A stretch of DNA of 64,000 bases from Kiritimatiellia bacterium (GTDB lineage Bacteria > Verrucomicrobiota > Kiritimatiellia > RFP12 > JBMNHG01): contig JBMNHG010000002.1 in assembly GCA_050950285.1 (NCBI GenBank), positions 760,654-824,653 of the forward strand, written 5' to 3'. Shown here piece by piece: positions 10,487 through 53,694 of the stretch. A program made the position numbers and the translations under genes. The notes under the pieces are model-generated. The model was given only the letters and a program-made list of their open reading frames with translations, was not told the DNA's origin and searched no databases. Position 1 is the first letter of the stretch; each line of letters begins with the position of its first letter.

Positions 10487-10633
10487 GACTGGAACCTTTC
10501 TGGGGAATTCGGAACGCAGGAGCCTGCCTCCGCCATCGCCCGGCCTTTCGCCGGCCGCAACGGATTCAAGCCGGCTATATCGTACCATTCCCTGGCGAGA
10601 CGGGCAAACGAAAAGGAACGCCGGGCCCGGCCG

Positions 10634-17721: not shown

Positions 17722-17813
17722 CCCAGGATTCGATTCGTGGGATACTTTCCGCGAATGGTCAAGACGGTCCAACCCGATCTCCGTCTCTCCTCCTCCCCCA
17801 CCCCCAAACCCGG

Positions 17814-32295: not shown

Positions 32296-33929
32296 AACGA
32301 CTCCCCGCCCTTCTCCTCGCCCTTCTCTCGGGCGGACTGCTGTTCCTCGCCTTCCCCCCCGCCGGAAAAGCGGATGCCGCCTGGATCGCGCTCGTCCCCC
32401 TGCTGCTCGCCCTGCGCGGCGCCTCCCCGCGGCGCGGCGCGCTGCTCGGCGCCATCACCGGCTTCGCCTTCTGGACAGGCAACCTCTCGTGGCTGATCGC
32501 GCTCGGCTCGAACGGGGGGCCCACCTGGCTCATCGCGGTGGGCCTTCTCGCGCTTTCCGCCTATTGCGCGCTCTATCTCGCCTGGTACGGCGCGCTGGTG
32601 GCCTGGTCGTGGCGCGCCCTCCCGCTTGGCCGGAATGGCTGGACGCGCGCCCTCGCCGCCCTGCTCATGGAGCCCCTGCTGTGGGTCGGCTGCGAGTTCG
32701 CCCGCGGCTGGTTCTTCACGGGCTTCCCGTGGAATTCGCTCGGCGTGAGCCAGTACCGGAACCTTCCCCTCGCCCAGGCCGCCGCGCTCGGCGGCCTGCC
32801 GCTCCTTTCGCTGCTGCTCGCCATGACGAATGGCGCGATCGCCTCCCTGATCCAGCGCATGGCCGAGGTCTTCCGCGCGACAACCCGCCGGCAGACGGGC
32901 CCGAAGGTGCGCTTTCGCGCCGCCGAACTCCTCGTGGCCGTCATCGTCCTTTGCGCCGCCAGCCTCTGGGGCGCGAAGCGGATCCGGGCATGGCGCGCCG
33001 CCGAACCGGACCTGCCCGCCTGGACGGTCGCCATCGTGCAACCCTACACGCCGTCCATCTTCGAAATCGACGCCGCCGCGCTGGACGCCTCCATCGCCGA
33101 AGCCCTCGGCCACACCGCCTGCGCGGGCATCGCGCGCCCCCATCTCGTGGTCTGGCCGGAATCCTCCCTCCCCGGAACGCTCCCGTACGACCCCGCCGCA
33201 GACGCCGTGGCCAGCAACATCGCCGCCGCCGCGAACGCCCCCGCGCTCGTGGGCGCCGTGGAATACCACCCCGGCCCCGGACCGGACCCGCGCGAAGGGG
33301 CGCGCTGCTACAACTCGTCGGTCCTCTACGGCGCCGACGGCGCCGCCCGCGCCATCTATCGCAAACAGCACCTCGTGCCCTTCGGCGAGTACATCCCCTT
33401 CGAAACCCTCTTCCCGTCGCTGAAACAGCTCCTCCCCATAGGCGAAAGCTGCCTCCCCGGAGAACCCTGCGTGCCGATGGAGGTCGACGGGCTCCTCTTC
33501 TCGCCCCTCATCTGCTTCGAGGACATCTTCCCCTACCTCGCACGGCGCGCCGTGGCCGGAGGCGCCCGCCTTCTCGTGAACCAGACGAACGACGCCTGGT
33601 TCGACGGCTCCAGCGAGCCCTGCCAGCACCTCGCCCAGTCGGTCTTCCGCGCCATCGAAAACGGCGTGCCGCTCGTCCGTTCCGCGAACGGCGGCGTGTC
33701 GGGCCTGATCGATCCCGTGGGACGAACCACCCTGCTCGCCTCGGATGGCCGCGACTCGGGATTCAGCGGCTTCCTCGTGACCCGCGCCGTGCCGCCGCCG
33801 TCCACGTGCCCCGCCACCCCCTACACGCGCTTCGGCGACTGGACCTGCGGACTCCCCGCCCTTTGCGTGACGCTTCTCGCCACGCTGGGCCTCTCCTGGC
33901 GCAAGCGCACGCCGCCTGCCGACCCTTGA
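32292..33929 (+). CDS. lnt: apolipoprotein N-acyltransferase
   Basis: N-terminal polytopic domain plus CN-hydrolase domain with E (VVWPESSLPG), K (YRKQHLVPFGEY), C (LICFEDIFP) triad; ATG overlaps upstream stop (ATGA). Confidence 0.85.
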   Translation: MKRLPALLLALLSGGLLFLAFPPAGKADAAWIALVPLLLALRGASPRRGALLGAITGFAFWTGNLSWLIALGSNGGPTWLIAVGLLALSAYCALYLAWYGALVAWSWRALPLGRNGWTRALAALLMEPLLWVGCEFARGWFFTGFPWNSLGVSQYRNLPLAQAAALGGLPLLSLLLAMTNGAIASLIQRMAEVFRATTRRQTGPKVRFRAAELLVAVIVLCAASLWGAKRIRAWRAAEPDLPAWTVAIVQPYTPSIFEIDAAALDASIAEALGHTACAGIARPHLVVWPESSLPGTLPYDPAADAVASNIAAAANAPALVGAVEYHPGPGPDPREGARCYNSSVLYGADGAARAIYRKQHLVPFGEYIPFETLFPSLKQLLPIGESCLPGEPCVPMEVDGLLFSPLICFEDIFPYLARRAVAGGARLLVNQTNDAWFDGSSEPCQHLAQSVFRAIENGVPLVRSANGGVSGLIDPVGRTTLLASDGRDSGFSGFLVTRAVPPPSTCPATPYTRFGDWTCGLPALCVTLLATLGLSWRKRTPPADP

Positions 33930-36769: not shown

Positions 36770-36780
36770 GGAGGGAATCC

Positions 36781-39393: not shown

Positions 39394-40427
39394 TTTTGCA
39401 GGCGGCGCTTTCGGTTTGCGGGGTCCTGGGGCAGAGCCAGGGCCTCACCAACGAGCCGATCGCCTGGTGTTCCTGCGCCTGGATCGCCGACGACGGCAAC
39501 GGGAACGTGTATCTGCCGGACGGCTGGATGATCCCGGCCGGGACGACCCGGGCGGTCCGGTCGGAGACGACGCGCTCCCCGCCGCCCGCGCTTGTCGGCA
39601 CCCCGCCGGACGTGTCGGCGTTCGACTGGGGGGGCAACGTCCTGGCGACAGGGACGCTGCCGAACAGCGGGGACTACGTCTTCTCGACGAAGCATCCCGA
39701 TTCGAAAATCCACCGCGTGACGCCGGAGGGCCGGGAGATCCGGGATGGATTCTGGCCGCGCAAGACGTATGCCGAGCGGTTCTGCGTCGCGGACGGGGAT
39801 CTCTGGGCGCTTGCGGGCCGTGCCGTGCGCCTCTCGGAGCGGCTCCGTCTTGGGGAAGGCGCGACGATCGGCGGCGGCTACGATTCGAGCGTGTACGGCG
39901 TCGCCCGGGGCAACGACGGCTGGTGGCTGGCGACCTCGCAGGGGGCGCACTATTATCCGGATGACGAGGGCGGACTTTATCTTCGCCGCATCGGCGGGCT
40001 CGCCCAGCCGACGGCGCTGGCGCTTTCGCGCGGACGCGTCGTCGCCGTGTTCGGGTGCCGCATCATGATGTTCGACCTCGACGACCGGGCCGACGAGCAG
40101 GTCAAAGGCGGCCGGACCGAGTGGAACTGGTTCGTCGGCGCGAGTTGGAAAACGCATGTGGACGGCATCGACGTCATCGACGGCGTGTTCTATCTGCATG
40201 ACGCGGTGAAGGACGAGACCTGGCGGTTCGACCCGACATACGGCGACGACGACTACGCGCGTCGCGCCAAACGGATGTGCCGGTCCGACGTCGTCGTCAC
40301 GAACCGCACGTGTGGCGGAACCATCGGCGGCTTGGAGGCGACGGCCATCGCCCATGAGGGGGCGTGGGCGGTTGCGTACGTGCCCGGGAAGAAGGCGATC
40401 GTCGTCTTCAAGGAGACCGGGCCCTGA
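39381..40427 (+). CDS. hypothetical secreted protein (overlaps upstream gene by 13 nt)
   Basis: Signal-like MCGLILQAALSVCGVLG; 348 aa; no identifiable domain. Confidence 0.4.
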   Translation: MCGLILQAALSVCGVLGQSQGLTNEPIAWCSCAWIADDGNGNVYLPDGWMIPAGTTRAVRSETTRSPPPALVGTPPDVSAFDWGGNVLATGTLPNSGDYVFSTKHPDSKIHRVTPEGREIRDGFWPRKTYAERFCVADGDLWALAGRAVRLSERLRLGEGATIGGGYDSSVYGVARGNDGWWLATSQGAHYYPDDEGGLYLRRIGGLAQPTALALSRGRVVAVFGCRIMMFDLDDRADEQVKGGRTEWNWFVGASWKTHVDGIDVIDGVFYLHDAVKDETWRFDPTYGDDDYARRAKRMCRSDVVVTNRTCGGTIGGLEATAIAHEGAWAVAYVPGKKAIVVFKETGP

Positions 40428-40517
40428 CCCCTCGTGCCTTTGCGATCCCACTTGAGCCGGAACCGCCGCAAGCGCAAGGACGGCAGCGTTTACGTCTCGC
40501 CGGAACACTACGCCTTC

Positions 40518-43500
40518 GTGTTGGCAATGTGGGTGGCGATCTGCGGGAACCGTGTATACGGGCCTTCTGCACGGTGGCCACCCCGCCCTTTGCGTGACGT
40601 TCCTCGCCACGCTGGGCCTCTCCTGGCGCAAGCGCAAGCGCACGCCGCCTGCCGGCCCTTGATGGTCCCCGCAAACGCCCCTCCATCCGGAACCGCTTCT
40701 GCTCCGGTGTCATGAATCTTGCGCTACAGGGGTGGATCAAACAAGGCTTGCCGCCGCCGTTGGCCCGTGCTACGTTCCCCACCATGGATACAAGTTGCAT
40801 TTCCTCCCTTGGGCCGCAGTTCCGGCGGCGCGCCGTTTTTCTCCGGGGCATTGCCGCCTGTGCCGCCGACGGCGCCGTGATCCTTCTGCGGTAGAGCCAT
40901 GGGACTCCTGCAGTCGATACGCCATTGGATGTTCGCGGGCGCCTGCCTGCTGGCCGGCGTGCCGCTGCTCTTCTGCATCGGCGCCTGGGCCGGGACGTCG
41001 CCCGGCCTGCGCCGCCTCTTCCGCGCTCTCGGCGACCGGTTCCGCTCGCTTGCGCCCTCCGTCAGGGCGGCGCTCTCCGCCCTCCTGGCGGTCGCCACCC
41101 TGCACGGCGTCCCGAAGGTGCCGCCCGGAAGCAACGCCCCGTCTTCCGGCCCTCCCCCGGCGGGCATGGTTTCCGGCGGCCTCCCGGCGCGGCCCGCGCG
41201 CGGCCCCTCCTCCGGCCCCCGCCTGACCGCCGGCCAGTACCGGGCCGGCTTCGCGCTCGCGCGCGTCGCCACCAATCCGTCTCCCGCCCTGGCCTCCGTC
41301 CCGTCGAACGCCGTCGTCCACGCCCCCTGGGCCCGCTACGGGGTGGCCGAGGACACCTTCTGGCTTCCCGCCACCAACTGGTCCTTCACCCTCGGCACCA
41401 ACCGCGTCGGGGGGCTGCACGTCTCCAGCAGCGGCACGCTCTCCTTCGGTTGGCCCAAGGGCTCGCCCCGCGCCCGCCGGATGCCCGACGGCTCGGGCCT
41501 CGACTTCCTCGCCCCCTTGCAGACCTCCCTCGGCATCGTCCCGCCGGCCGGACGCTTCTGGCACGCCCCGACCGCCTCCAACAGCCTGCTGCTCGCCTGG
41601 CAGGACGTCTTCGCCGGCCGCGACGCCGGCCTCCCCGTCACCTTCCAGGCCGAACTCTTCCCCTCCGGCGACTTCGTCTACCGCTACGACCTGTCCCGGC
41701 TGTCCGCCACCAACGCGCCGCCCGCCACCAACTGGGTCGTCGGCGCCCAGCACGGCGGCGGCGGCGAGACCTTCGCCTTCGGCGGCACGGGCGTCCTCGT
41801 CCACGGCCTCGAACTCCACTGGCGCGCCTTCGGCATGCTCGATCCGGACATCGCCGACCACGACGGCGACGGACTCTCCACCTGCGACGAGGTGATGGTC
41901 CACGGCACCGACCCCCGCCTGCCCGACATCGACCTCGACGGCCTCGCGGACCCGGACGAACTGGCCCTCGGAACCGGCCCGCGCAATCCCGACGCCGACG
42001 GCGACGGGCTGCCGGACGGCATCGACCCGGAGCCGTTTGCCTGGAACGATCCCGACGCCGACGCCGACGGCGACGGCTGCCCCCTCTGGCAGGAACTGCT
42101 CCATGGGACCAGCGACGCGGTCCCCGGCGACGTGGCACGACTCCTGGCCGACGGCTTCCGCACCGTCGTCTTCACCGTCGCCGGCACGCCCGGCCCCGGC
42201 ACGGTGCTGGCGCTTGGCGGCCGTCCCCTCCTGCTGGAGGGACGGGAAGAGTTCAGCCTCGACCTGCCCGACGGCTCGTCCATCCCCCTCGCGCTCGGCA
42301 ACGCCCCCGGCGTCTCGGTGTCGGCCGCCTCGACCGGCTGCATCGTCCTGGCCGGCCGCACCGGCGGCCTGGCGCCCGGCGGGAAGGGCGCGGGCGCGGC
42401 GACCCTGGTGTTGCCGGCCGTCACCGTCGGTTCCGGCGGGATCGTCTGCCTGCACGATGCGCATCAGCCGATCGTGGCCAGCGTCACGGACGGCCTTCCG
42501 GGAACCTACAACTGGGAGTGGATCAACGGCGCCATCTATGGCGGCAGAAGCCCCGTGATATCGCCATCGTGGATCCTGCCCGGCCGGCTCACGGTGCGGT
42601 TCCTGCCCGACGACGGGAACGGGGTCGGGTGCGGGACGTCCGCGATGGTCGAGCAGTGCCACCGCTTCTATTGCGACCATGGCCGGCCGGCGCGCGAGTG
42701 CGGCATCTGCACGGGCGGAAGTCCGGAGGAGTGGTGTTCGCTTCACGGCGAGTGGAAATGCGTCTGCGCCTGCCTGACGCTGGGCGGCGGCGGGATGCTG
42801 GCGCCGGGTGGCGAAGCCGGCTTCATGCTTGGCTCCGAAAATGACGGTTGCATGCGCCACATCCACCACGCGCGCTGCTGCGCCTGTCCCGGGCACATGG
42901 CGCTGGGCGGCTGGTGGGCGGAGAAGAAGACCAACGTGGTCCGCCGGATCTCGGCGCGCCTCGATGTGCGGCGCGACGGCGTCCCGGTCGCGGCCGGCGA
43001 CCGCTTCGCCGGCCCGGCCCCGCTGACGGCCGGGGGGCTGGTTCCCAGCACGGCGTTCGGCGACGCCCAAGTCGTCGCCAGCCACGAGCTGCATCCGTCG
43101 CACACGGCCACCTCGTCCTGGACGGTGGCCGCCATCGGCCTCGACGCGGCGGGCACTGCCGGCGGGCACTGCCGCATCCGCGGCGGCACCGGCTGCGTCT
43201 CGCGCGTGGCGGTCCTCACCGAGTCGGCGCTGGCGGAGGGAAGCCTGCGGCTCGCCGCCTCCGCGGGGTTGCGCTTCAGCGTTGTCGAGGGCGCGCCCTG
43301 GGCCGCCGCACGGTCGGCCCTCACGAACACGCCCCCCGCCTCGGTCGCGGCCAGCCGCGACTTCTGGCTAAGCGCCCAGGTTGGCGGTGATTACGAGCTG
43401 GGCTACAAGCTGCTCGATCCCGCGCAAAGGGTCCGCCTCTCGACCAACCTCCTCGTCGAGGCCATCGTCGCCAGACTGGCGACGAACGCCTACTACACCG

Positions 43501-43720
43501 CCTGCGGGAGCACCGCCGGGATCACCGTCAACCTCGCGCCCTCCAGCCACGACCCCGAAGGCTACACGCTCAGCCTCGACGGCACTCCCATCGCCGACGG
43601 CCAGCCGCCCTGGCCGGTGTCCGTCGGCAACCTCGCCGTCGGCGCGCACTCCCTGACGGTGCAGTCCGCCACCTTCCCCGACCTCGCGGACGAGGCCACG
43701 CTGTATGTCGTGAGAGTAGA
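40518..43720 (+). repeat. direct repeat copy A (~3.2 kb, >99% identical to 45419..48620): promoter region plus 5' 2.8 kb of toxin gene
   Basis: Base-for-base comparison of the two regions shows only ~10 substitutions; identity ends right after codons ...ATLYVVRVD. Confidence 0.8.
40577..40653 (+). repeat. ~75-bp copy of the 3' end of lnt (incl. stop codon) at left edge of toxin unit A
   Basis: CCCGCCCTTTGCGTGACGTTCCTCGCCACGCTGGGCCTCTCCTGGCGCAAGCGCAAGCGCACGCCGCCTGCCGGCCCTTGA versus lnt 33853..33929 (CCCGCCCTTTGCGTGACGCTTCTCGCCACGCTGGGCCTCTCCTGGCGCAAGCGCACGCCGCCTGCCGACCCTTGA). Confidence 0.55.
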
Positions 43721-44699
43721 CACCATTGAAGCCTCATCTCCGGTTGCCACCAATTCGCCGCAGCTTTTTGATGGTCACAAGACCAACTTTGGTAATCCGT
43801 GTTCCGCTGTTTCACCTGGCCAAGCGCTCATCATATTCTATGACGCCGTTATCGACGCTAGCTATAATGTTCAAGACTTCGATATCACACTCAAAGCAAA
43901 TGTCCTGCCAACAAGTCTAACGGCCAACCAACTTAATGAAAGCTGGGCCAAGGTAGAAGGTCCATCTTCTGGTAACCTGAACCGGACAGACACCTTCGAG
44001 GTCAAATTCCAGAACCCGAAAGTGGGTGGGTTGTATCAGTTTGAATTTGATCTAGGGTTGACTGGTTGCGCCAAGAGTGGAGCGAATGTGGACTTGCCGC
44101 TTGCAGGTGCTGATATGACCACATGGCTTGACACAGAGACCAAGGCTGTTGGTACTTGGGCAACCATGCACCGTGCTTTAACAGAGATGGCCAACTACAG
44201 TGCGATTCCTGGTGTTACCAAATACAATGTTTATCGAACATGGTGTTTGATATCCAGTTCGGACTTCGACTACACATTTGATCCTGTTGATGCTCAGCGA
44301 CAAGCACCATGTAGGCGTTTCCAACCACCGGCGGGCTCATATGGTTATGTCACTGTCAACGGCGTTGTTGTTCACGGCAGCAAACTCAACAATATGATGT
44401 GGGCGCTTTTTGGTAGATATTGGGGATACAGCGAAACTAGTCTCCGCATGGGCGCGCATTTGAACCAACTTGGACGAAACCTGAGAATTGACGGTGCAAC
44501 ATCACAGAATTCCATTGGCCTGGGTTCTGACATCCACAACAATCCTGCAGCCAACATCACGAACATATTGACGCATACAAGCCTTCGATCACTGCAAGAC
44601 CCATCGTCACTGATCGAAGAAAGGCTCTGGCCATCACCATATCCTGCAGAAGCCGGAAATTCATTTTTTAATCGACCAACGCTGTCAACAACGCCATAG
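40899..44699 (+). CDS. polymorphic toxin candidate A (1266 aa): signal/TM N-terminus, TSP3-like Ca-binding repeats, Cys/His-rich module, conserved pre-toxin junction, unique low-GC C-terminal domain (~340 aa)
   Basis: MGLLQSIRHWMFAGACLLAGVPLLFCIGAWAG signal-like N-terminus; DPDIADHDGDGLSTCDEV / DIDLDGLADPDE / NPDADGDGLPDGIDPEPF / DPDADADGDGCPLWQE repeats; CHRFYCDHGRPARECGICTGG...CMRHIHHARCCACPGH; junction PDLADEATLYVVRVD then divergent tail at ~47% GC. Confidence 0.7.
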   Translation: MGLLQSIRHWMFAGACLLAGVPLLFCIGAWAGTSPGLRRLFRALGDRFRSLAPSVRAALSALLAVATLHGVPKVPPGSNAPSSGPPPAGMVSGGLPARPARGPSSGPRLTAGQYRAGFALARVATNPSPALASVPSNAVVHAPWARYGVAEDTFWLPATNWSFTLGTNRVGGLHVSSSGTLSFGWPKGSPRARRMPDGSGLDFLAPLQTSLGIVPPAGRFWHAPTASNSLLLAWQDVFAGRDAGLPVTFQAELFPSGDFVYRYDLSRLSATNAPPATNWVVGAQHGGGGETFAFGGTGVLVHGLELHWRAFGMLDPDIADHDGDGLSTCDEVMVHGTDPRLPDIDLDGLADPDELALGTGPRNPDADGDGLPDGIDPEPFAWNDPDADADGDGCPLWQELLHGTSDAVPGDVARLLADGFRTVVFTVAGTPGPGTVLALGGRPLLLEGREEFSLDLPDGSSIPLALGNAPGVSVSAASTGCIVLAGRTGGLAPGGKGAGAATLVLPAVTVGSGGIVCLHDAHQPIVASVTDGLPGTYNWEWINGAIYGGRSPVISPSWILPGRLTVRFLPDDGNGVGCGTSAMVEQCHRFYCDHGRPARECGICTGGSPEEWCSLHGEWKCVCACLTLGGGGMLAPGGEAGFMLGSENDGCMRHIHHARCCACPGHMALGGWWAEKKTNVVRRISARLDVRRDGVPVAAGDRFAGPAPLTAGGLVPSTAFGDAQVVASHELHPSHTATSSWTVAAIGLDAAGTAGGHCRIRGGTGCVSRVAVLTESALAEGSLRLAASAGLRFSVVEGAPWAAARSALTNTPPASVAASRDFWLSAQVGGDYELGYKLLDPAQRVRLSTNLLVEAIVARLATNAYYTACGSTAGITVNLAPSSHDPEGYTLSLDGTPIADGQPPWPVSVGNLAVGAHSLTVQSATFPDLADEATLYVVRVDTIEASSPVATNSPQLFDGHKTNFGNPCSAVSPGQALIIFYDAVIDASYNVQDFDITLKANVLPTSLTANQLNESWAKVEGPSSGNLNRTDTFEVKFQNPKVGGLYQFEFDLGLTGCAKSGANVDLPLAGADMTTWLDTETKAVGTWATMHRALTEMANYSAIPGVTKYNVYRTWCLISSSDFDYTFDPVDAQRQAPCRRFQPPAGSYGYVTVNGVVVHGSKLNNMMWALFGRYWGYSETSLRMGAHLNQLGRNLRIDGATSQNSIGLGSDIHNNPAANITNILTHTSLRSLQDPSSLIEERLWPSPYPAEAGNSFFNRPTLSTTP

Positions 44700-44717
44700 C
44701 AAGGTAGGGAGAACATC

Positions 44718-45212
44718 ATGAAGCGAATCGTATCAGCATTGTCATTTGCGCTGCTGTTTGCCTTGGCAAACGCCATGGCCCAGAAGCCGCCGGAACCAAT
44801 AGAAGTTGCCAATAGCGTCTCCAACCTGTGGATGGCGCAAGACTTCAGCGGGATGAGCACATACGTGTCTAATCTCTACAACACATGTTCTAACTACGTG
44901 CCCGCCATCTTGGCGGCAAGTTTTCATGACGGTGTCTATTTGGGTAAACTGTCTCAGGCCTTCGACAAGCTAGCCCGTGTCAGGGGATGTGTTACTAATA
45001 ACCCGCAGAGTTTTACGGTCGAGTTTCGAGATCTTCTTGGAGAATTGCAATCCGAAACGAAGAGGGAAATTGATCTCCATGCCAGAATGGGCACATCGCC
45101 CCAGGCCTTGGAATCCAATGCGTCCCCACAAACTGTTCGCAGTTTATGGGGCACCGAGCTTTTGCCTGAAATTAATATTCTCTATTACGCACCTGCCACC
45201 AATGTGCCATGA
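44718..45212 (+). CDS. small secreted protein, candidate immunity protein for toxin A C-terminal domain
   Basis: Starts 19 nt after toxin A stop with SD AGGGAG; signal peptide MKRIVSALSFALLFALANAMA; low GC like the toxin tail. Confidence 0.5.
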   Translation: MKRIVSALSFALLFALANAMAQKPPEPIEVANSVSNLWMAQDFSGMSTYVSNLYNTCSNYVPAILAASFHDGVYLGKLSQAFDKLARVRGCVTNNPQSFTVEFRDLLGELQSETKREIDLHARMGTSPQALESNASPQTVRSLWGTELLPEINILYYAPATNVP

Positions 45213-45274
45213 GGTGAACATGCGTAAATTTTTGCCTGCCGTGACAACGAATGATGTGGCGCAATGGGTACAGA

Positions 45275-45410
45275 AAGGCGAGCATAACCAACAAGCCCAT
45301 GACCTACAGGCGTTTTCTGAAAGCTATCGAAGACGACGGACTGCTAGGCAATTAGCACCGTCCAAAAAGAGTCACAATGAGCCGTATTCACACTGCTGCG
45401 TGTTTGTTCA
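45275..45410 (+). repeat. junction remnant: duplicate of 52546..52683 (3' end of gene 52164..52634 plus 5' start of gene 52656..53021)
   Basis: Identical run AAAGGCGAGCATAACCAACAAGCCCATGACCTACAGGCG...GGCAATTAGCACCGTCCAAAAAGAGTCACAATGAGCCGTATTCACACTGCTGCGTGTTTGTT in both places; at 45.4 kb it ends abruptly where repeat copy B begins. Confidence 0.65.
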
Positions 45411-45418
45411 TGTTTGTA

Positions 45419-48400
45419 AGTGTTGGCAATGTGGGTGGCGATCTGCGGGAACCGTGTATACGGGCCTTCTGCACGGTGGCCACCCCGCCCTTTGCGTGAC
45501 GTTCCTCGCCACGCTGGGCCTCTCCTGGCGCAAGCGCAAGCGCACGCCGCCTGCCGACCCTTGATGGTCCCCGCAAACGCCCCTCCATCCGGAACCGCTT
45601 CTGCTCCGGCGTCATGAATCTTGCGCTACAGGGGTGGATCAAACAAGGCTTGCCGCCGCCGTTGCCCCGTGCTACGTTCCCCACCATGGATGCAAGTTGC
45701 ATTTCCTCCCTTGGGCCGCAGTTCCGGCGGCGCGCCGTTTTTCTCCGGGCCGTCGCCGCCTGTCTTGTCGCGGCGCCGTGATCCTTCCGAGGTAGAGCCA
45801 TGGGACTCCTGCAGTCGATACGCCATTGGATGTTCGCGGGCGCCTGCCTGCTGGCCGGCGTGCCGCTGCTCTTCTGCCTCGGCGCCTGGGCCGGGACGTC
45901 GCCCGGCCTGCGCCGCCTCTTCCGCGCTCTCGGCGACCGGTTCCGCTCGCTTTCGCCCTCCGTCAGGGCGGCGCTCTCCGCCCTCCTGGCGGTCGCCACC
46001 CTGCACGGCGTCCCGAAGGTGCCGCCCGGAAGCAACGCCCCGTCTTCCGGCCCTCCCCCGGCGGGCATGGTCTCCGGCGGCCTCCCGGCGCGGCCCGCGC
46101 GCGGCCCCTCCTCCGGCCCCCGCCTGACCGCCGGCCAGTACCGGGCCGGCTTCGCGCTCGCGCGCGTCGCCACCAATCCGTCTCCCGCCCTGGCCTCCGT
46201 CCCGTCGAACGCCGTCGTCCACGCCCCCTGGACCCGCTACGGGGTGGCCGAGGACACCTTCTGGCTCCCCGCCACCAACTGGTCCTTCACCCTCGGCACC
46301 AACCGCGTCGGGGGGCTGCACGTCTCCAGCAGCGGCACGCTCTCCTTCGGTTGGCCCAAGGGCTCGCCCCGTGCCCGCCGGATGCCCGACGGCTCGGGCC
46401 TCGACTTCCTCGCCCCCCTGCAGACCTCCCTCGGCATCGTCCCGCCGGCCGGACGCTTCTGGCACGCCCCGACCGCCTCCAACAGCCTGCTCCTCGCCTG
46501 GCAGGACGTCTTCGCCGGCCGCGACGCCGGCCTCCCCGTCACCTTCCAGGCCGAACTCTTCCCCTCCGGCGACTTCGTCTACCGCTACGACCTGTCACGG
46601 CTGTCCGCCACCAACGCGCTGCCGGCCGCCAACTGGGTCGTCGGCGCCCAGCACGGCGGCGGCGGCGAGACCTTCGCCTTCGGCGGCACGGGCGTCCTCG
46701 TCCACGGCCTCGAACTCCACTGGCGCGCCTTCGGCATGCTCGACCCGGACATCGCCGACCACGACGGCGACGGACTCTCCACCTGCGACGAGGTGATGGT
46801 CCACGGCACCGACCCCCGCCTGCCCGACACCGACCTCGACGGCCTCGCGGACCCGGACGAACTGGCCCTCGGAACCGGCCCGCGCAATCCCGACGCCGAC
46901 GGCGACGGGCTGCCGGACGGCATCGACCCGGAGCCGTTTGCCTGGAACGATCCCGACGCCGACGCCGACGGCGACGGCTGCCCCCTCTGGCAGGAACTGC
47001 TCCATGGGACCAGCGACGCGGTCCCCGGCGACGTGGCACGACTCCTGGCCGACGGCTTCCGCACCGTCGTCTTCACCGTCGCCGGCACGCCCGGCCCCGG
47101 CACGGTGCTGGCGCTTGGCGGCCGTCCCCTCCTGCTGGAGGGACGGGAAGAGTTCAGCCTCGACCTGCCCGACGGCTCGTCCATCCCCCTCGCGCTCGGC
47201 AACGCCCCCGGCGTCTCGGTGTCGGCCGCCTCGACCGGCTGCATCGTCCTGGCCGGCCGCACCGGCGGCCTGGCGCCCGGCGGGAAGGGCGCGGGCGCGG
47301 CGACCCTGGTGTTGCCGGCCGTCACCGTCGGTTCCGGCGGGATCGTCTGCCTGCACGATGCGCATCAGCCGATCGTGGCCAGCGTCACGGACGGCCTTCC
47401 GGGAACCTACAACTGGGAGTGGATCAACGGCGCCATCTATGGCGGCAGAAGCCCCGTGATATCGCCATCGTGGATCCTGCCCGGCCGGCTCACGGTGCGG
47501 TTCCTGCCCGACGACGGGAACGGGGTCGGGTGCGGGACGTCCGCGATGGTCGAGCAGTGCCACCGCTTCTATTGCGACCATGGCCGGCCGGCGCGCGAGT
47601 GCGGCATCTGCACGGGCGGAAGTCCGGAGGAGTGGTGTTCGCTTCACGGCGAGTGGAAATGCGTCTGCGCCTGCCTGACGCTGGGCGGCGGCGGGATGCT
47701 GGCGCCGGGTGGCGAAGCCGGCTTCATGCTTGGCTCCGAAAATGACGGTTGCATGCGCCACATCCACCACGCGCGCTGCTGCGCCTGTCCCGGGCACATG
47801 GCGCTGGGCGGCTGGTGGGCGGAGAAGAAGACCAACGTGGTCCGTCGGATCTCGGCGCGCCTCGATGTGCGGCGCGACGGCGCCCCGGTCGCGGCCGGCG
47901 ACCGCTTCGCCGGCCCGGCCCCGCTGACGGCCGGGGGGCTGGTTCCCAGCACGGCGTTCGGCGACGCCCAAGTCGTCGCCAGCCACGAGCTGCATCCGTC
48001 GCACACGGCCACCTCGTCCTGGACGGTGGCCGCCATCGGCCTCGACGCGGCGGGCACTGCCGGCGGGCACTGCCGCATCCGCGGCGGCACCGGCTGCGTC
48101 TCGCGCGTGGCGGTCCTCACCGAGTCGGCGCTGGCGGAGGGAAGCCTGCGGCTCGCCGCCTCCGCGGGGTTGCGCTTCAGCGTTGTCGAGGGCGCGCCCT
48201 GGGCCGCCGCACGGTCGGCCCTCACGAACACGCCCCCCGCCTCGGTCGCGGCCAGCCGCGACTTCTGGCTAAGCGCCCAGGTTGGCGGTGATTACGAGCT
48301 GGGCTACAAGCTGCTCGATCCCGCGCAAAGGGTCCGCCTCTCGACCAACCTCCTCGTCGAGGCCATCGTCGCCAGACTGGCGACGAACGCCTACTACACC

Positions 48401-48620
48401 GCCTGCGGGAGCACCGCCGGGATCACCGTCAACCTCGCGCCCTCCAGCCACGACCCCGAAGGCTACACGCTCAGGCTCGACGGCACTCCCATCGCCGACG
48501 GCCAGCCGCCCTGGCCGGTGTCCGTCAGCAACCTCGCCGCCGGCGCGCACTCCCTGACGCTTCAATCCAACACCTTCCCCGACCTCGCGGACGAGGCCAC
48601 GCTGTATGTCGTGAGAGTTG
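45419..48620 (+). repeat. direct repeat copy B (~3.2 kb) of 40518..43720
   Basis: See copy A; includes second lnt-3'-like element at 45478..45554. Confidence 0.8.
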
Positions 48621-49378
48621 ATTCTGTTGAGCCGGACTCCATGGCAAATCTTCAGGAGATCGATGACGGTGACGGCAATTCCAGGACGCGTGTTTTTGTC
48701 GTTCCTGTGGAACAGGCCTTGGAGTTTCCCTCAACTCCTGTTACGGTGCGGGCAAACCTGGTGCCGACCATTTCCGAGAGCCAGCTTCCCGCCGGCTGGA
48801 CTATTGAGGGTGGCACAGGCTCTGGAAAACTGACCAGAATTATTTGGCGGTACGTTTCAACGGGAGCTTCCAAAACAGAATTCACTTTTTCGTGCGGCGG
48901 CACAGACTCGGGATTTAAGACAACCGTCTATGTCTATGATGCAAGGGTGGCTCTTTTCGCTGACGAGGGGGACTTGCAGAATCTTGAGGTTGGACATAGC
49001 TGGGGGCGCTACAGCATAGATGACGACACATGTACGGATCTAATTGACTCCGATTACTGGGACTATTTTCAAGAGATAGGCTTCTGGCCTTCCATAGCGG
49101 GAAATGCAGACTGTGCAGGAGACGTTCGCTTGGGGGGTGATGCGGTAGGGGCACATTTGCCGACAGGCTGGAAGGAATATCCTATCAGCTTAATTCCCCT
49201 GTTGCTTGCCTTGCCACAGGTGAAAGCCAGCGATGACGCTCCGCCTTGGTACAACCTTTTCAACTATAACTGCACGGACTACGCCATTGGCATTGGCGAG
49301 GCCGTCAACATCTACACGATGGACGCTTCCGGCTTGAGCACTCCCTGGGCCTTCTCGGGCTGGTTGAATGCGCATTGA
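45800..49378 (+). CDS. polymorphic toxin candidate B (1192 aa): same core as A, different low-GC C-terminal domain (~250 aa)
   Basis: First ~940 aa >99% identical to toxin A; after PDLADEATLYVVRVD the tail is SVEPDSMANLQEIDDGDGNSRTRVFVV... with HSWGRY and NYNCTDYAIGIGEA motifs (possible His/Cys enzyme; speculative). Confidence 0.7.
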   Translation: MGLLQSIRHWMFAGACLLAGVPLLFCLGAWAGTSPGLRRLFRALGDRFRSLSPSVRAALSALLAVATLHGVPKVPPGSNAPSSGPPPAGMVSGGLPARPARGPSSGPRLTAGQYRAGFALARVATNPSPALASVPSNAVVHAPWTRYGVAEDTFWLPATNWSFTLGTNRVGGLHVSSSGTLSFGWPKGSPRARRMPDGSGLDFLAPLQTSLGIVPPAGRFWHAPTASNSLLLAWQDVFAGRDAGLPVTFQAELFPSGDFVYRYDLSRLSATNALPAANWVVGAQHGGGGETFAFGGTGVLVHGLELHWRAFGMLDPDIADHDGDGLSTCDEVMVHGTDPRLPDTDLDGLADPDELALGTGPRNPDADGDGLPDGIDPEPFAWNDPDADADGDGCPLWQELLHGTSDAVPGDVARLLADGFRTVVFTVAGTPGPGTVLALGGRPLLLEGREEFSLDLPDGSSIPLALGNAPGVSVSAASTGCIVLAGRTGGLAPGGKGAGAATLVLPAVTVGSGGIVCLHDAHQPIVASVTDGLPGTYNWEWINGAIYGGRSPVISPSWILPGRLTVRFLPDDGNGVGCGTSAMVEQCHRFYCDHGRPARECGICTGGSPEEWCSLHGEWKCVCACLTLGGGGMLAPGGEAGFMLGSENDGCMRHIHHARCCACPGHMALGGWWAEKKTNVVRRISARLDVRRDGAPVAAGDRFAGPAPLTAGGLVPSTAFGDAQVVASHELHPSHTATSSWTVAAIGLDAAGTAGGHCRIRGGTGCVSRVAVLTESALAEGSLRLAASAGLRFSVVEGAPWAAARSALTNTPPASVAASRDFWLSAQVGGDYELGYKLLDPAQRVRLSTNLLVEAIVARLATNAYYTACGSTAGITVNLAPSSHDPEGYTLRLDGTPIADGQPPWPVSVSNLAAGAHSLTLQSNTFPDLADEATLYVVRVDSVEPDSMANLQEIDDGDGNSRTRVFVVPVEQALEFPSTPVTVRANLVPTISESQLPAGWTIEGGTGSGKLTRIIWRYVSTGASKTEFTFSCGGTDSGFKTTVYVYDARVALFADEGDLQNLEVGHSWGRYSIDDDTCTDLIDSDYWDYFQEIGFWPSIAGNADCAGDVRLGGDAVGAHLPTGWKEYPISLIPLLLALPQVKASDDAPPWYNLFNYNCTDYAIGIGEAVNIYTMDASGLSTPWAFSGWLNAH

Positions 49379-49386
49379 GGTTTTTG

Positions 49387-50238
49387 ATGAGAGGCAAATT
49401 GAAATCATCCGCAGTCGTCTGGCTCCTGGCGGGGCTTCTGCTGGCGGCCTTTCTTATGTGGAGTACGCATAGAAAACAGACTGCACGTCTTCCGGCTGCT
49501 CCGCATGAACGGGCGGCGGTCGAGGGCGTCCCGGCTGTCGCGCCGGAAGTTACCGGCATAACCTCTACGGAGAACGATTCTTTAGGATTCACTACTCATA
49601 CTCAGGGCGTTTCCACGGTGCGAAAGACCCAGTGGAAGGCGGCACTGCCCACCGGAATCACATTCACTGCCGGCGCATTAGGCGTTGAAAGGCCAGTGTT
49701 GCTTCCGCTCGTCGATGCCGTGAGCAATGCCGTCCTCTCAACAGACCGGATCCTGAAGGCGGGGGATTATCAGGTGAACGAGTTCGGCCGCTCTGTCTGG
49801 CTGACGTCCGAGGACAAGGAGCGATTAATCGTTTGGACCATCTTTCCGTACAGGACGAACAACGTGGTAGGCTCCGTTGAGGCGACAGCTTATCAGGACG
49901 CTACACTTACGCTGAAAGACCCTTCGCGCAGTTTCCGGATGAGTTTCCATCCTGAGACAGGAGCATTGCTCAGTTTTTCATGGGCAGATAAGCATGAAGT
50001 ATTGATTGTTCGGACAAACAACTGGGCAGTAAACTACGCTAGACATCTGAAAGATAAGAAACGCCTTGTTATGCGATGGGATGCCCAGGGAAATCTTGTT
50101 TCAAGCAATGTCTATGACTGGGCCAAACGTGGACGTGTCATTGGTGGCTCGCCGCAGTCGAACAAGACGGCCTACCGCATTGGGCCGACTTCTTCCGTGG
50201 AAGCCGCAACTGAGTCATGGCGTCGCAAGAATGAATAA
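49387..50238 (+). CDS. membrane-anchored small protein (284 aa), immunity candidate for toxin B tail
   Basis: ATG 9 nt after toxin B stop; N-terminal signal-anchor MRGKLKSSAVVWLLAGLLLAAFLMW; ~50% GC. Confidence 0.5.
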   Translation: MRGKLKSSAVVWLLAGLLLAAFLMWSTHRKQTARLPAAPHERAAVEGVPAVAPEVTGITSTENDSLGFTTHTQGVSTVRKTQWKAALPTGITFTAGALGVERPVLLPLVDAVSNAVLSTDRILKAGDYQVNEFGRSVWLTSEDKERLIVWTIFPYRTNNVVGSVEATAYQDATLTLKDPSRSFRMSFHPETGALLSFSWADKHEVLIVRTNNWAVNYARHLKDKKRLVMRWDAQGNLVSSNVYDWAKRGRVIGGSPQSNKTAYRIGPTSSVEAATESWRRKNE

Positions 50239-50345
50239 CGGTCGGATGTCTGGAAAGGCCAAGCAGGGGACAGGGAGTCGCCTTGAGTGGCAGAGGAACA
50301 GCGTTTTCTGCCTGTCTGTCTGAACACACATTAAGGGGTTTTTTG

Positions 50346-51170
50346 ATGAGAGGCAAATTGAAATCATCCGCGGTCGTCTGGTTTCTGGCGGGGCTACTGC
50401 TGGCGGCCTTTCTTATGTGGAGTACGCATAGAAAACAGACTGCGCGTCTTCCGGCTGCTCCGCATGAACGGGCAGCGGTCGAGGGCGTCCCGGCTGTCGC
50501 GCCGGAAATCACCGGCAAAACCTCTACGGAGAACGATTCTTTAGGATCCACTACTCATACTCAGGGCGTTTCCACGGTGCGAAAGACCCAGTGGAAGGCG
50601 GCGGCGCTGCCCACCGGAATCACATTCACTGCCGGCGCATTAGGCGTTGAAAGGCCAGTGTTGCTTCCGCTCGTCGATGCCGTGAGCAATGCCGTCCTCT
50701 CAACAGACCGGATCCTGAAGGCGGGGGATTATCAGGTGAACGAGTTCGGCCGCTCTGTCTGGCTGACGTCCGAGGACAGGGAGCGATTAATCGTTTGGAC
50801 CATCTTTCCATACAGGACGAACAACGTGGTAGGCTCCGTTGAGGCGACAGCTTATCAGGACGCTACACTCACGCTGAAAGACCCTTCGCGCAGTTTCCGG
50901 ATGAGTTTCTATCCGAACAGCGGAGAACTGCGCGACTTCTGTTGGGCTGATTCCCGTGAGGTTTTATTTGTTTATACTAACGGTCCTTTCTCTGTTGACT
51001 ATGCAAGACGCATCAAAGGGACGGTATCATTAGAGATGCGATGGGATGGGATGCTCAGGGAAATCTTGTTTCAAGCAATGTCTATGACTGGGCCAAACGT
51101 GGACGTGTCATTGGTGGCTCGCCGCAGCCGAACAAGACGGCCTACCGCATTGGGCCGACTTCTTCCGTAG
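50346..51170 (+). CDS. paralog of 49387..50238 with divergent C-terminal third and a 5-nt insertion frameshift near the 3' end (possibly decaying)
   Basis: First ~190 codons ~95% identical at nucleotide level; at ~51040 CGATGGGATGGGATGCTCAGGG versus CGATGGGATGCCCAGGG in the paralog puts the rest into the frame of spurious ORF 50066..50323. Confidence 0.45.
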   Translation: MRGKLKSSAVVWFLAGLLLAAFLMWSTHRKQTARLPAAPHERAAVEGVPAVAPEITGKTSTENDSLGSTTHTQGVSTVRKTQWKAAALPTGITFTAGALGVERPVLLPLVDAVSNAVLSTDRILKAGDYQVNEFGRSVWLTSEDRERLIVWTIFPYRTNNVVGSVEATAYQDATLTLKDPSRSFRMSFYPNSGELRDFCWADSREVLFVYTNGPFSVDYARRIKGTVSLEMRWDGMLREILFQAMSMTGPNVDVSLVARRSRTRRPTALGRLLP

Positions 51171-51229
51171 AAGCCGCAACTGAGTCATGGCGTCGCAAGG
51201 ACAAGCCAGATTAACAAGGAGAATTCGCG

Positions 51230-51703
51230 ATGCATCGTTATTTGTTTGTTTCAATATGCTGGCTTTTGGGTGCGTCTGTCGCATATGCGGGCGACACGAA
51301 TTTTGTGGCGGCTTTTAATGTGCGATGGCAAAGCAAAGACGCTTCGAACATTCTGGTTTTCATGGAAAATCAGGTTAACAGCAATCGGAATGTAGAGACA
51401 TTATGCGCCCGCGGCATTGTCGCTGCGGCTCTCCAGGAGTGGGGACGTGGAGCAACGAATTATCTTGGCCAGGCTATTAGTGCAACAGAGACCAGCCCTT
51501 TATATTCAACATCAGGGAAAGCGCGCATAGTCCGCCTGATCGGTAACGTCAAAGGATGTTTCGAGGCGCTTGCAGATGATACAGGTGAAGCGTCAAACTC
51601 CCAGCCATCGTGGAATACAAGCAGCCATGCCGCAATCTTCAATGAACTTGGCGCAGAAGTTCCCTTCCTTGATGTTCTGCAGGAAATTTCAACGGTGGAG
51701 TAA
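51230..51703 (+). CDS. small secreted protein (157 aa), immunity-array member
   Basis: Signal peptide MHRYLFVSICWLLGASVAYA; low GC. Confidence 0.45.
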   Translation: MHRYLFVSICWLLGASVAYAGDTNFVAAFNVRWQSKDASNILVFMENQVNSNRNVETLCARGIVAAALQEWGRGATNYLGQAISATETSPLYSTSGKARIVRLIGNVKGCFEALADDTGEASNSQPSWNTSSHAAIFNELGAEVPFLDVLQEISTVE

Positions 51704-51705
51704 AA

Positions 51706-51921
51706 ATGCGCTGGTTAGGGGTTATTGTGTTTTCGATCTTGTCGTTCGTGGTTCTCCTTTATGCGTTTCTGGTCATTGCAAAATACATGGCCAATTCTTC
51801 TGGCGGAGCACCAGCTTTGGGTTTCGGTATCCTCGCCATTGCGATACCCTTCGCGGTTTTAATAGGGATACCTCTTGTGTTTGTTTTGTTTTATGCAGTA
51901 TTGCGATCACGGAAAAAATGA
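51706..51921 (+). CDS. 71-aa two-TM membrane mini-protein
   Basis: MRWLGVIVFSILSFVVLLYAFLVIAKY...ILAIAIPFAVLIGIPLVFVLFYAV; starts 3 nt after previous stop. Confidence 0.4.
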   Translation: MRWLGVIVFSILSFVVLLYAFLVIAKYMANSSGGAPALGFGILAIAIPFAVLIGIPLVFVLFYAVLRSRKK

Positions 51922-52151
51922 GAGAATGGAGCTGGGACGCTGGCTGGGCTGTCGGCGGTGGTGCCGCTTATGGAACCACCGTCTCCAATCTCGTGGTGGA
52001 CATATGGGACGAGCACAAGAACGACGACAAGAACCAGAAGCTATGGCCCAACCATGCCCCGTTCGACAACTATGTCGCCCCGCAGTTCTTCTTTGGCGAA
52101 CAGGACGAGCGCTTCACCTCGCCCACTTTTCTTTACATGCCCATTCCCTGA
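51918..52151 (+). CDS. 77-aa Trp/Gly-rich mini-protein, translationally coupled (ATGA) to previous ORF
   Basis: MREWSWDAGWAVGGGAAYGTTVSNLVVDIWDEHKNDD...; ATG overlaps TGA of 51706..51921. Confidence 0.35.
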   Translation: MREWSWDAGWAVGGGAAYGTTVSNLVVDIWDEHKNDDKNQKLWPNHAPFDNYVAPQFFFGEQDERFTSPTFLYMPIP

Positions 52152-52163
52152 AAGGAGCAAGAC

Positions 52164-52634
52164 ATGAGAACTCACACCCACACCGCCATGCTTTCCACCT
52201 TTTGCCTTCTGGCATGGATGCATTTCGCGCCGCCGCTGCGAGCGCAGACCAACTTCTATGACCACGTCACGCGCATGTGGCTGAACGGACAGAAGCAGGA
52301 AGTGTACTGCATAGCAACCAACCGTCTGGCTGTCGCTTCAAACGATATTGCAGGTTTGGTGTTAAAGATGGAATACGAGCTTGCGCTCTGCGATTTTAAT
52401 CTTACCAATACATTGGCAAAGGCAGTTGCAGTCGGAAGTAATATTACAACAACCAACTTTGTCCAATTATATCCACTTCTCCAGCTTGAAGCATCAGACT
52501 TGCTGGTTTTTCTCGCAAGCTACTCGACCAATTGTCTCGCGGAAGACAGGGCAAAGGCGAGCATAACCAACAAGCCCATGACCTACAGGCGTTTTCTGAA
52601 AGCTATCGAAGACGACGGACTGCTAGGCAATTAG
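52164..52634 (+). CDS. small secreted protein (156 aa), immunity-array member
   Basis: Signal peptide MRTHTHTAMLSTFCLLAWMHFAPPLRAQ; its last 25 codons are duplicated at 45275..45353. Confidence 0.5.
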   Translation: MRTHTHTAMLSTFCLLAWMHFAPPLRAQTNFYDHVTRMWLNGQKQEVYCIATNRLAVASNDIAGLVLKMEYELALCDFNLTNTLAKAVAVGSNITTTNFVQLYPLLQLEASDLLVFLASYSTNCLAEDRAKASITNKPMTYRRFLKAIEDDGLLGN

Positions 52635-52655
52635 CACCGTCCAAAAAGAGTCACA

Positions 52656-53021
52656 ATGAGCCGTATTCACACTGCTGCGTGTTTGTTCGTTTTTGTAGGC
52701 GCTAGTTTCGCGTTCGGGGATGATGCACAATTCTCCGAACGGCGTTTATTGCTGGCGTCAAACTGTGTTCATTTGACAGAAAACAGTTATATTCCTTTGC
52801 GTACCGAACTCAGCAACTATACTGCTGTGTGTACCAATGTCGACAATCTGGCCGAGAGTCGCCTTCTCCTTGCGACGATCCTGACGGAATCCAGCAAAAC
52901 CAATGATTTATATCAGGCGATTGATTTATGCATGGCGATAACACAACAAGCCACCCAAGAGTGGCAGCGAGCGCTAGGTCATTTCGGGCTTTCTCATGCG
53001 CATGGGTGTGCCAAGAACTAG
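52656..53021 (+). CDS. small secreted protein (121 aa), immunity-array member
   Basis: Signal peptide MSRIHTAACLFVFVGASFAFG; its first ~19 codons are duplicated at 45376..45420, where the paralogous copy is truncated by repeat copy B. Confidence 0.5.
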   Translation: MSRIHTAACLFVFVGASFAFGDDAQFSERRLLLASNCVHLTENSYIPLRTELSNYTAVCTNVDNLAESRLLLATILTESSKTNDLYQAIDLCMAITQQATQEWQRALGHFGLSHAHGCAKN

Positions 53022-53057: not shown

Positions 53058-53279
53058 TTGTTTTCTACTAACGTAATGGTGCAATCAGATAATGCATTGT
53101 TGACATATCTGCGCTCAAGCGGCCAGAACTACTCTTATCATGATGGTTTGCGTTGCATGATTGTTCAGGGATTATGCGGCAAACGGCAATTCGATGACGC
53201 TAGAACGGCAGCAGCCTTGATCGAGAACATCAATTTACGTGTACTCATTGAACAATCAATTGATTTTTACGACAAATAG
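53058..53279 (+). CDS. 73-aa hypothetical cytoplasmic protein
   Basis: ORF only; low GC; MFSTNVMVQSDNALLTYLRSSGQNYSYHDGLRCMIVQGLCGK... Confidence 0.3.
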   Translation: MFSTNVMVQSDNALLTYLRSSGQNYSYHDGLRCMIVQGLCGKRQFDDARTAAALIENINLRVLIEQSIDFYDK

Positions 53280-53283
53280 CCAT

Positions 53284-53694
53284 ATGTGTTTCCATGAAGC
53301 GGAGGCCATCGTCGCCAGACTGGCGACGAACGCCTACTACACCGCCTGCGGGAGCACCGCCGGGATCACCGTCAACCTCGCGCCCTCCAGCCACGACCCC
53401 GAAGGCTACACGCTCAGCCTCGACGGCACTCCCATCGCCGACGGCCAGCCGCCCTGGCCGGTGTCCGTCAGCAACCTCGCCGCCGGCGCGCACTCCCTGA
53501 CGCTTCAATCCAACACCTTCCCCGACCTCGCGGACGAGGCCACGCTGTATGTCGTAGGAGTAGATCTCGACATTGACGCCAACCATGACGGCATCATAGA
53601 CGACGATGACGATGATCCGCTGGAGGAGGATGAGGGAGGCTATGTCTGTGCCAGCACAAACCGCCTTCGCGCAATCGCGGCAAAATCTTCATAG
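53284..53694 (+). other. orphan toxin C-terminal cassette: third copy of the pre-toxin junction (~88 aa) fused to a short novel poly-acidic tail; 5'-truncated relative to full toxin genes
   Basis: 53303..53563 ~identical to 48361..48621 (copy-B-type SVSNLAAGAHSLTLQSNTF); junction reads ATLYVVGVD then LDIDANHDGIIDDDDDDPLEEDEGGYVCASTNRLRAIAAKSS; in-frame ATG at 53284. Confidence 0.55.
53303..53563 (+). repeat. third copy of toxin junction segment (matches 48361..48621 and 43460..43720)
   Basis: ~260-bp near-identity, begins inside codons EAIVARLATNAYY. Confidence 0.7.

Follow-up and report, generated by a model that had tools for sequence, protein, structure and literature searches.

A probable tandem-duplication seam between two toxin-like genes of a Kiritimatiellia bacterium

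Two long genes of a Kiritimatiellia bacterium, toxA and toxB, are separated by an immunity-like gene, immA, and by a short stretch made of the tail of one gene and the head of another, both of which recur farther downstream. How did these fragments come to lie there, and what do they reveal about the growth of the array? The locus belongs to a 64,000-nt stretch (hereafter the window) of contig JBMNHG010000002.1 in an NCBI metagenome-assembled genome (MAG; GenBank assembly GCA_050950285.1), where toxA, immA and toxB are the consecutive loci ACOX5G_03010/03015/03020 on a 1.08-Mb contig. toxA and toxB share a scaffold of 940 residues and carry different C-terminal tips, CT-A and CT-B; the shared part together with its upstream region forms a long direct repeat, R, and each copy of R, followed by its tip and downstream genes, constitutes one unit (A or B; Table 1). 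Our analysis indicates that the fragments between the units, here called the scar, probably have no function and mark the place where a segment of a polymorphic-toxin locus was duplicated in tandem.

The joint between the units

Comparison of the locus with itself by a repeat finder, by self-BLAST of 36-58 kb and by direct reading places the scar at 45274-45418, which matches 52553-52697 over 145 nt with 98.6% identity (2 mismatches, BLAST E 2e-68). The stretch 45274-45409 (136 nt) is exact, and the sole mismatches, at 45410 (A vs G) and 45412 (G vs T), lie 7-9 nt before the end of the match, beside the junction. The scar comprises the end of gene 52164, a short spacer and the beginning of gene 52656, whose fragment translates as MSRIHTAACLFMFV with the substitution V12M due to both mismatches. 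A sequence-only reading of the window had described an exact match of about 135 bp composed of these two genes and their spacer; our self-comparison bears this out, and the gene portions are corrected from 25 to 26 codons plus the stop and from about 19 to 14 codons. The unit boundaries of that reading are likewise correct, in that homology ends at 45418 with copy B of R running from 45420, and both units indeed end with the same gene 52164/gene 52656 junction.

A three-way alignment of the joint with its parental sites resolves the unit end (breakpoint Y) and the unit start (breakpoint X). The parental sequences read ...CGCCTTC/GTGTTGG at X (40518) and ...TTTGTAG/GCGCTAG at Y (52697/8); microhomology between them amounts to 1 nt at the most, and no longer homology links the two sites. 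The base at 45419 (A) matches neither parent and stands as a single untemplated base between the scar end at 45418 and position 45420. Translation of both sites reveals that gene 52656 is cut in copy 1 and whole in copy 2. The direct join between the two units, end of A to start of B, is the signature of tandem duplication, and the head-to-tail copies, the novel joint and the terminal gene cut in copy 1 are the features by which tandem duplication through illegitimate recombination is recognized.

A dedicated mobility mechanism would place the same sequences differently: the unit would have moved by site-specific recombination or transposition, as an integron-like cassette or a composite transposon, with the 145 nt as part of a recognition end. 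An insertion sequence (IS) in the related contig L001, an integrase beside the toxin gene of contig L020 and the direct repeats of an lnt 3' end that bracket 33936-40580 are compatible with such movement, but the unit has no terminal inverted repeats, target-site duplication or recombinase gene, and X and Y have at most 1 nt in common. Moreover, the repeat search found no recurring motif at the other cassette borders, and the 145 nt consist of parts of two ordinary genes, so that we consider this mechanism very unlikely.

The left neighbour of the scar is a putative gene start that arrived with the A cassette, and the right-hand breakpoint of the A-cassette replacement falls between 45273 and 45274. 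No counterpart of this gene start is found 3' of immA homologues in the homologue loci examined. An open frame of 114 aa (45220-45564) is stitched from four fragments, namely this unassigned gene start, the out-of-frame tail of gene 52164, the head of gene 52656 and the in-frame tail of an lnt-like fragment; contig L012 has it as a called gene, and the frame almost certainly carries no meaning. The MAG annotation calls no gene in the scar, and exact look-ups of toxA and of a 40-aa junction open reading frame matched no called gene.

Related contigs were retrieved by exact-protein look-ups, and the junction from 45418 to 45420 is crossed by four independent metagenome assemblies, L010 (ENA ERZ21942150) and L012, L013 and L014 (three JGI samples). 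The latter three are 100% identical to the window. In L010 the junction itself is identical too, and its private changes within the scar are a 1-nt deletion in the gene 52164 remnant and a substitution in the gene 52656 remnant. Two of the three L010 differences thus fall within the scar, which makes up 8.5% of the compared length (p = 0.02), and this concentration argues that the scar is unconstrained, decaying DNA in a separate, diverged lineage. A gapped-pattern scan of JGI metagenome contigs for further scar-crossers found none, in a collection that may not include these samples. It is scarcely credible that strain variants, collapsed or wrongly joined during assembly, produced the tandem arrangement or the 145-nt repeat: repeats abound in the region, R interrupts short-read contigs, and contigs L004 and L005 take paths that differ from the window, but the Y/X joint is novel sequence that is not obtainable from a mixture of alleles. 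The joint also comes from two data sources, with private mutations in one assembly, and the window from a contig of megabase size.

Table 1. Features of the two-unit locus and its surroundings (window coordinates)
Feature	Coordinates	Strand	Description
lnt (apolipoprotein N-acyltransferase)	32310..33929 (start approximate)	+	Pfam LNT_N 6.9e-33, CN_hydrolase 3.8e-24
Repeat R, copy A	40518..43720	+	381-nt upstream region (with lnt-3' fragment 40581-40669) and toxA codons 1-940
toxA	40899..44699	+	1266 aa, ACOX5G_03010; conserved scaffold and CT-A (43721-44699)
immA	44718..45212	+	164 aa, signal peptide; presumed immunity partner of CT-A; ACOX5G_03015
Cassette-borne gene start	45220..45273	+	Ribosome-binding-site-like AGGTG, ATG, 18 codons; putative, from sequence; arrived with the A cassette
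Scar part 1	45274..45355	+	Final 26 codons and TAG of gene 52164-52634, ...KASITNKPMTYRRFLKAIEDDGLLGN and stop
Scar part 2	45356..45418	+	21-nt spacer (45356-45376), then opening 14 codons of gene 52656-53021 (45377-45418)
Duplication junction Y/X	45419..45420	+	Unit end (= 52697) joined to unit start (= 40518); three-way alignment
Repeat R, copy B	45420..48621	+	Upstream region (with lnt-3' fragment 45483-45571) and toxB codons 1-940; starts GTGTTGGCAATGTGGG
toxB	45800..49378	+	1192 aa, ACOX5G_03020; CT-B (48622-49378), an Ig-like subdomain and a His/Cys hydrolase-like domain
immB1 and immB2	49375..51170	+	Tandem membrane-anchored pair, 87% protein identity; presumed CT-B immunity, from position
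Small cassette genes	51230..51921	+	51230-51703 (157 aa, signal peptide); 51706-51921 (71 aa, two transmembrane helices)
Displaced toxin-tip remnant	51924..52151	+	Last 75 codons of a P0003-type toxin domain
Gene 52164	52164..52634	+	156 aa, signal peptide; presumably gave immunity to the displaced P0003-type tip; scar part 1 derives from it
Gene 52656	52656..53021	+	121 aa, signal peptide; intact; the duplicated unit stops after its first 14 codons
Orphan module C	53239..53694	+	R's last 264 nt for a third time (53302-53565), then only 43 codons of a different tip

Repeat R and the exchanged interiors

Self-BLAST aligns the two copies of repeat R over 3203 nt with 98.8% identity. Near its left end each copy contains the last 89 nt of lnt (lnt-side match 33854-33935; 87-88% identity, a 6-nt indel), in agreement with the lnt-like element that the sequence-only reading had placed at the left of the unit. 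Breakpoint X lies 63 nt upstream of this fragment; an extension of lnt-like homology across X was considered and rejected, as only 40581-40669 is significant. The outer lnt-3' copies bracket 33936-40580, which holds three genes without a family match and a GC dip to 0.60, a pattern that would fit an island inserted at the lnt 3' end.

Beyond codon 940 the two units have unrelated interiors of low GC (cassettes 0.47-0.53, with 0.49 for the A cassette, against 0.73 for R and 0.67 for the flanks). CT-A consists of an Ig-like subdomain followed by a putative toxin domain of ~190 aa without a known fold. TSP3 proteins in contigs L054-L058, unrelated in other respects, have C-termini that are 69-74% identical to CT-A, and this tip is found on proteins of 815 aa and 1392 aa that have only TSP3 repeats in common with toxA. 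An immA homologue (164-165 aa, 69-79% identity) directly follows the CT-A-type C-terminus in all five homologue loci examined (5/5). Unit A lacks both the older tip described below and the first 130 codons of gene 52164, and has CT-A, immA and the 18-codon gene start instead. The possibility that the A cassette is a diverged copy of the old tip/immunity pair was rejected because immA and gene 52164 show no detectable relationship.

CT-B has 18 homologues in which the motifs GHSW and NCTDY are conserved and the N-termini are diverse and unrelated. AlphaFold2 prediction from the single sequence gave a mean predicted local distance difference test (pLDDT) score of 32, and the model was therefore built on the 18-sequence alignment, with a pLDDT of 91.9. 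The best match of its catalytic half in the PDB is a type VI secretion system (T6SS) effector of Vibrio cholerae, TseH (6v98; match probability 0.98, E 0.026, template-modelling score 0.33/0.44, 13% identity). Like TseH, CT-B conserves a His and a Cys (in GHSW and NCTDY, respectively), but the structural match is weak and no sequence-level relationship between the two is detectable; the TseH-like fold of the model is thus a weak but sensible lead. The presumed immunity genes downstream of CT-B are a local duplication, 49365-50229 and 50321-51199 being ~90% identical in nucleotide sequence. The two small genes that follow, 51230-51703 and 51706-51921, have no family match. Signal peptides or membrane anchors occur in most of the small downstream proteins (immA, immB1/B2, g51230, g51706, g52164, g52656 and g53732), which suggests that the toxins of this locus act on the envelope, and such exported or membrane-anchored proteins fit an envelope target as for TseH.

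An older tip has left its mark in unit B. The product of 51924-52151 is 86% identical over 73 aa to residues 1192-1264 of P0003, a toxin encoded on contig L020, and the nucleotide sequences are homologous too. In L020, a relative with ~76% nucleotide identity, P0003 is directly followed by a gene for 153 aa that is 72% identical to gene 52164. This arrangement, together with the P0003-like tail in front of gene 52164, identifies gene 52164 as the partner of an older, displaced tip. Since the tail is kept in unit B, the ancestral interior was neither CT-A nor CT-B, and both units therefore descend from one unit that ended with the old tip, gene 52164 and gene 52656, with neither present interior being ancestral. 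The sequence-only reading had proposed a tandem duplication followed by replacement of the internal segment; both the duplication and the unrelated low-GC interiors stand, but both units were remodelled, not one only, and the order so proposed is one of several possible ones. The left ends of the cassettes coincide with a conserved segment ending in ...FPDLADEATLYV, and their right ends lie at arbitrary points. The 43 tip codons of orphan module C stand before gene 53732-54880.

Taken together, the following history may be proposed. An ancestral unit would have comprised the lnt-3' fragment, the 5' region, the scaffold of ~940 codons, a P0003-type tip, gene 52164 as its immunity gene and the start of gene 52656. 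Illegitimate recombination would then have joined Y, 42 nt into gene 52656 (= 52697), to X, 381 nt before the toxin start (= 40518), yielding a head-to-tail copy; as the whole 5' region was included, both copies would be complete, independently expressible genes. The variable ends would subsequently have been exchanged by cassette replacement anchored in the conserved ...FPDLADEATLYV segment before the toxin domain. In copy 1, CT-A, immA and the neighbour-gene start would have replaced everything up to codon 130 of gene 52164, leaving the scar; in copy 2, CT-B and its immunity genes would have displaced the old tip, of which the last 75 codons were left before an intact gene 52164. The repeats of 3.2 kb, 264 nt and 145 nt would now serve as substrates for gene conversion and for deletions that restore single-unit forms. 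The presumable benefit of such a course would be a second toxin gained with no immunity gene lost. Direct observations behind this history are the joint, the scar, the tail of the displaced tip, the variant contigs and the way in which tips and their downstream genes vary together.

Variant contigs, gene conversion and the order of events

Contigs with a single-unit path through the locus are seen. L001, a contig of 106 kb from another sample, carries one unit, with CT-B right after the upstream flank and no unit A. Its repeat R is chimeric, A-type in the 5' part and B-type in the 3' part, its match to the window has 100% identity over 11 kb of flanks, and only 1 difference is found in 15.6 kb of unique sequence. 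By comparison, the junction-bearing L010 shows 3 events in 1.7 kb (vs L001, p = 0.0035 with the scar and 0.17 without it). Given its chimeric R and its near-identity to the window, L001 is more simply explained as a deletion derivative, and the data are suggestive of a recent deletion between R-A and R-B and not of a pre-duplication ancestor. The comparison with single-unit relatives that had been proposed from the sequence thus yields a single-unit contig, but one that looks like a derivative rather than an ancestor. In contig L004, immA and the scar are followed by the full gene 52656, which is the expected product of recombination between the 145-nt copies. As L001 and L004 can each be derived from a two-unit array by homologous deletion, they do not fix the order of events. 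In L005 (3464-4845), the orphan 264-nt repeat (53302-53565) runs into CT-B and immB1 (48622-49740), either because unequal crossover amplified the whole cassette block in tandem or because the contig is an assembly chimera. L001 also contains an IS at 10574-12145 (window 53219-53228) that is absent from the window; it encodes a DDE transposase of 425 aa, interrupts the small gene 53058-53279 with duplication of a 10-bp target (GATCGAGAAC) and has ends that are inverted (CACTAGCATCCCATAGGC).

A third near-identical scaffold gene, P0002, lies at another locus, next to batD, in contig L019 (9843-16512), with 96% identity over 940 aa and another tip. L019 comes from the same sample as L001, and P0002 is followed by two copies of a homologue (90%) of window gene 53732-54880. 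This paralogue bears on the 5' part of R, in which 17 sites within ~520 nt (40655-41171) distinguish copy B from copy A, a divergence of ~3%. Many of the B-type 5' variants, including most of the cluster just before the start codon, recur in the L019 paralogue, which is alignable only from 40740. Within that cluster, 40848-40889 and 45750-45790 show 11 differences in 42 nt just before the start codons, and most of the B states are common to L019. L012, with 100% identity to window 43499-45895, carries the copy-B 5' haplotype and the junction on one contig. A hairpin of G and C followed by a T-run, 65 nt upstream of the ATG (40823-40845 and 45725-45747), is conserved in all three copies and may be a regulatory leader.

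Several of these observations weigh against the proposed history. The diverged 5' region of copy B and its resemblance to the L019 paralogue could mean that unit B was imported and not copied in place. The contigs L004 and L005 may be assembly chimeras, as they cross exact repeats of 136 nt and ~130 nt; these lengths are close to the k-mer sizes assumed to be typical of short-read assembly. The duplication may have preceded both replacements, or it may have taken place in the B state with a later A replacement. Scans for promoter consensus sequences and terminators found nothing above chance, so the promoter that the sequence-only reading had included in the unit was an assumption. Finally, no recognized secretion or trafficking domain (PAAR, RHS, TPS, LXG, WXG, MafB-N and the like) was detected in Pfam and NCBIfam searches.

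As to import, the scar copies show 0 differences over 136 nt (P = 0.011 at a true divergence of 3.3%), which favours later gene conversion over import of unit B. The copy-B variants common to the L019 paralogue and the identity of the scar copies together argue for gene conversion among paralogues and not for an old duplication, and point to gene conversion having overwritten part of the history of the units. A related scheme, which we consider rather unlikely, is that single-unit A and B alleles were joined after transfer, a circular or linear intermediate with the Y/X joint integrating through homologous recombination within R. In its favour, each single-unit path is represented by a contig (L001 that of B, L004 that of A), and the 17 sites at which copy B differs from copy A also separate it from L001, with many of the variants shared with L019. 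Even so, the same illegitimate Y/X joint must form first under this scheme, L001 reads better as the recent deletion described above, and L004 may be a chimera across the 136-nt repeat.

The scaffold family and known toxin systems

A general definition of polymorphic toxin systems is reportedly that of Zhang et al. (2012). We compare the locus here with the general definition after Jamet and Nassif (2015; PMC4436062). toxA, toxB and P0002 are 96-99% identical up to residue 940 and unrelated beyond it, the combination of a constant N-terminus and a variable C-terminus. One and the same tip occurs on different scaffolds, as seen for the homologues of both CT-A and CT-B, and the downstream gene co-varies with the tip by association, immA homologues standing with CT-A-type ends and the gene 52164 homologue with a P0003-type end. 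Comparable main/orphan pairs are held by relatives. In structure the locus is a polymorphic toxin locus with orphan modules, whose toxicity, immunity and secretion route are inferred.

The 940-aa scaffold combines a hydrophobic segment at the N-terminus with a domain of ~230 aa that has no name, TSP3 repeats of the bacterial type, a region rich in Cys and His, Ig-like modules and the junction motif FPDLADEATLYV. A database search returned ~160 relatives, nearly all from Kiritimatiellia and related Planctomycetes–Verrucomicrobia–Chlamydiae (PVC) MAGs, with homology limited to the N-terminal 20-75%; the C-terminal Pfam domains present in some of them vary, with arginine deiminase-like and alpha/beta hydrolase domains among them. 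For scaffold residues 100-330, an exhaustive search gave 441 representative clusters and no family name. Besides the TSP3-like (calcium-binding) repeats, toxA and toxB have no match in Pfam or NCBIfam; sequence searches of these databases and of the PDB assigned no family to the scaffold, CT-A or any of the small genes, and the scaffold family profile has no solved relative in the PDB. The search of GTDB genomes for relatives used an alignment query; a single-protein scan of the same genomes found no relative. The Rfam search returned only a distant tRNA. Among the papers searched, none joins Kiritimatiellia with polymorphic toxins. We tentatively propose, at somewhat less than even confidence, that the scaffold represents an undescribed delivery family of polymorphic toxins in Kiritimatiellia and related PVC bacteria, which would be exported unlike type V, type VI and type VII secretion system substrates and would enlarge its arsenal by duplicating whole promoter-bearing genes, not just by stacking orphan tips.

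Comparison with known systems reveals both similarities and differences. The main and orphan Rhs loci of Salmonella and E. coli (PMC3967940) likewise combine a conserved delivery region, a variable C-terminal tip and an immunity gene, and their orphan modules also keep a conserved stretch (264 nt here, 522 bp in Salmonella); in both systems, homologous recombination may reverse the duplication. For the rhs locus, Koskiniemi et al. (2014; PMC3967940) proposed that the locus is duplicated before main and orphan genes recombine, a way to gain a new tip with the old immunity gene kept. In contrast to Rhs, we find no YD/RHS repeats, PAAR or T6SS context here, toxA, toxB, P0002 and P0003 having no RHS or YD match in Pfam. 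A further difference is that the duplication is fixed in nature with its non-homologous junction preserved, and that both copies are full-length with their own 5' regions instead of a main gene plus fragments.

The orphan CdiA-CT/CdiI modules (Poole et al. 2011, PMC3150448) resemble the present array in that displaced tips and immunity genes stand 3' of a full-length gene. CdiA tips are bounded by the VENN motif, whereas the tips here are bounded by ...FPDLADEATLYV, and unlike CdiA the locus shows no TPS domain, FHA repeats or CdiB partner, none of which has a Pfam match in the toxins or the scanned neighbour genes. In the T6SS of Vibrio cholerae (Kirchberger et al. 2017, PMC5361080), the old effector gives way to an incoming module and its immunity gene stays, generating arrays with effector remnants; the remnant and retained gene at 51924-52634 are alike. 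The V. cholerae arrays grow by displacement only, whereas here whole-unit tandem duplication is added and no T6SS genes lie nearby. Membership in the Rhs, CdiA or T6SS-effector families thus fails on the defining domains, as judged from sequence.

The mechanism of array growth is therefore already known in kind, from the arrays of Rhs, contact-dependent growth inhibition and T6SS systems, and is expected; the toxin scaffold is new. The growth of toxin-immunity arrays has so far mostly been inferred from gene order. Here the breakpoints survive and the steps can be read base by base: the duplication joint is preserved, as are the breakpoint of a replacement, which falls within an immunity gene, and the tail left by a toxin that was displaced, and natural variants show the array contracting. 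The locus would thus be a fixed natural counterpart of the Salmonella rhs model, in which a copy is made first, the tip is swapped and all immunity is kept. Furthermore, the unnamed protein family represented by the 441 clusters is a probable interbacterial weapon of Kiritimatiellia from anaerobic digesters.

Two further observations concern the surroundings of these genes. In L020 (1-9100), the toxin locus stands beside a tyrosine integrase, AbiEii, a GpA-type nuclease and an ISL3 fragment, which suggests that it sits in a mobile island. In the window, 17718-24692 encodes a protein of 2324 aa with a Glycine-rich domain (PF21722) and DUF1565, of which a stretch of 104 aa is 37% identical to the product of gene 34301-36769.

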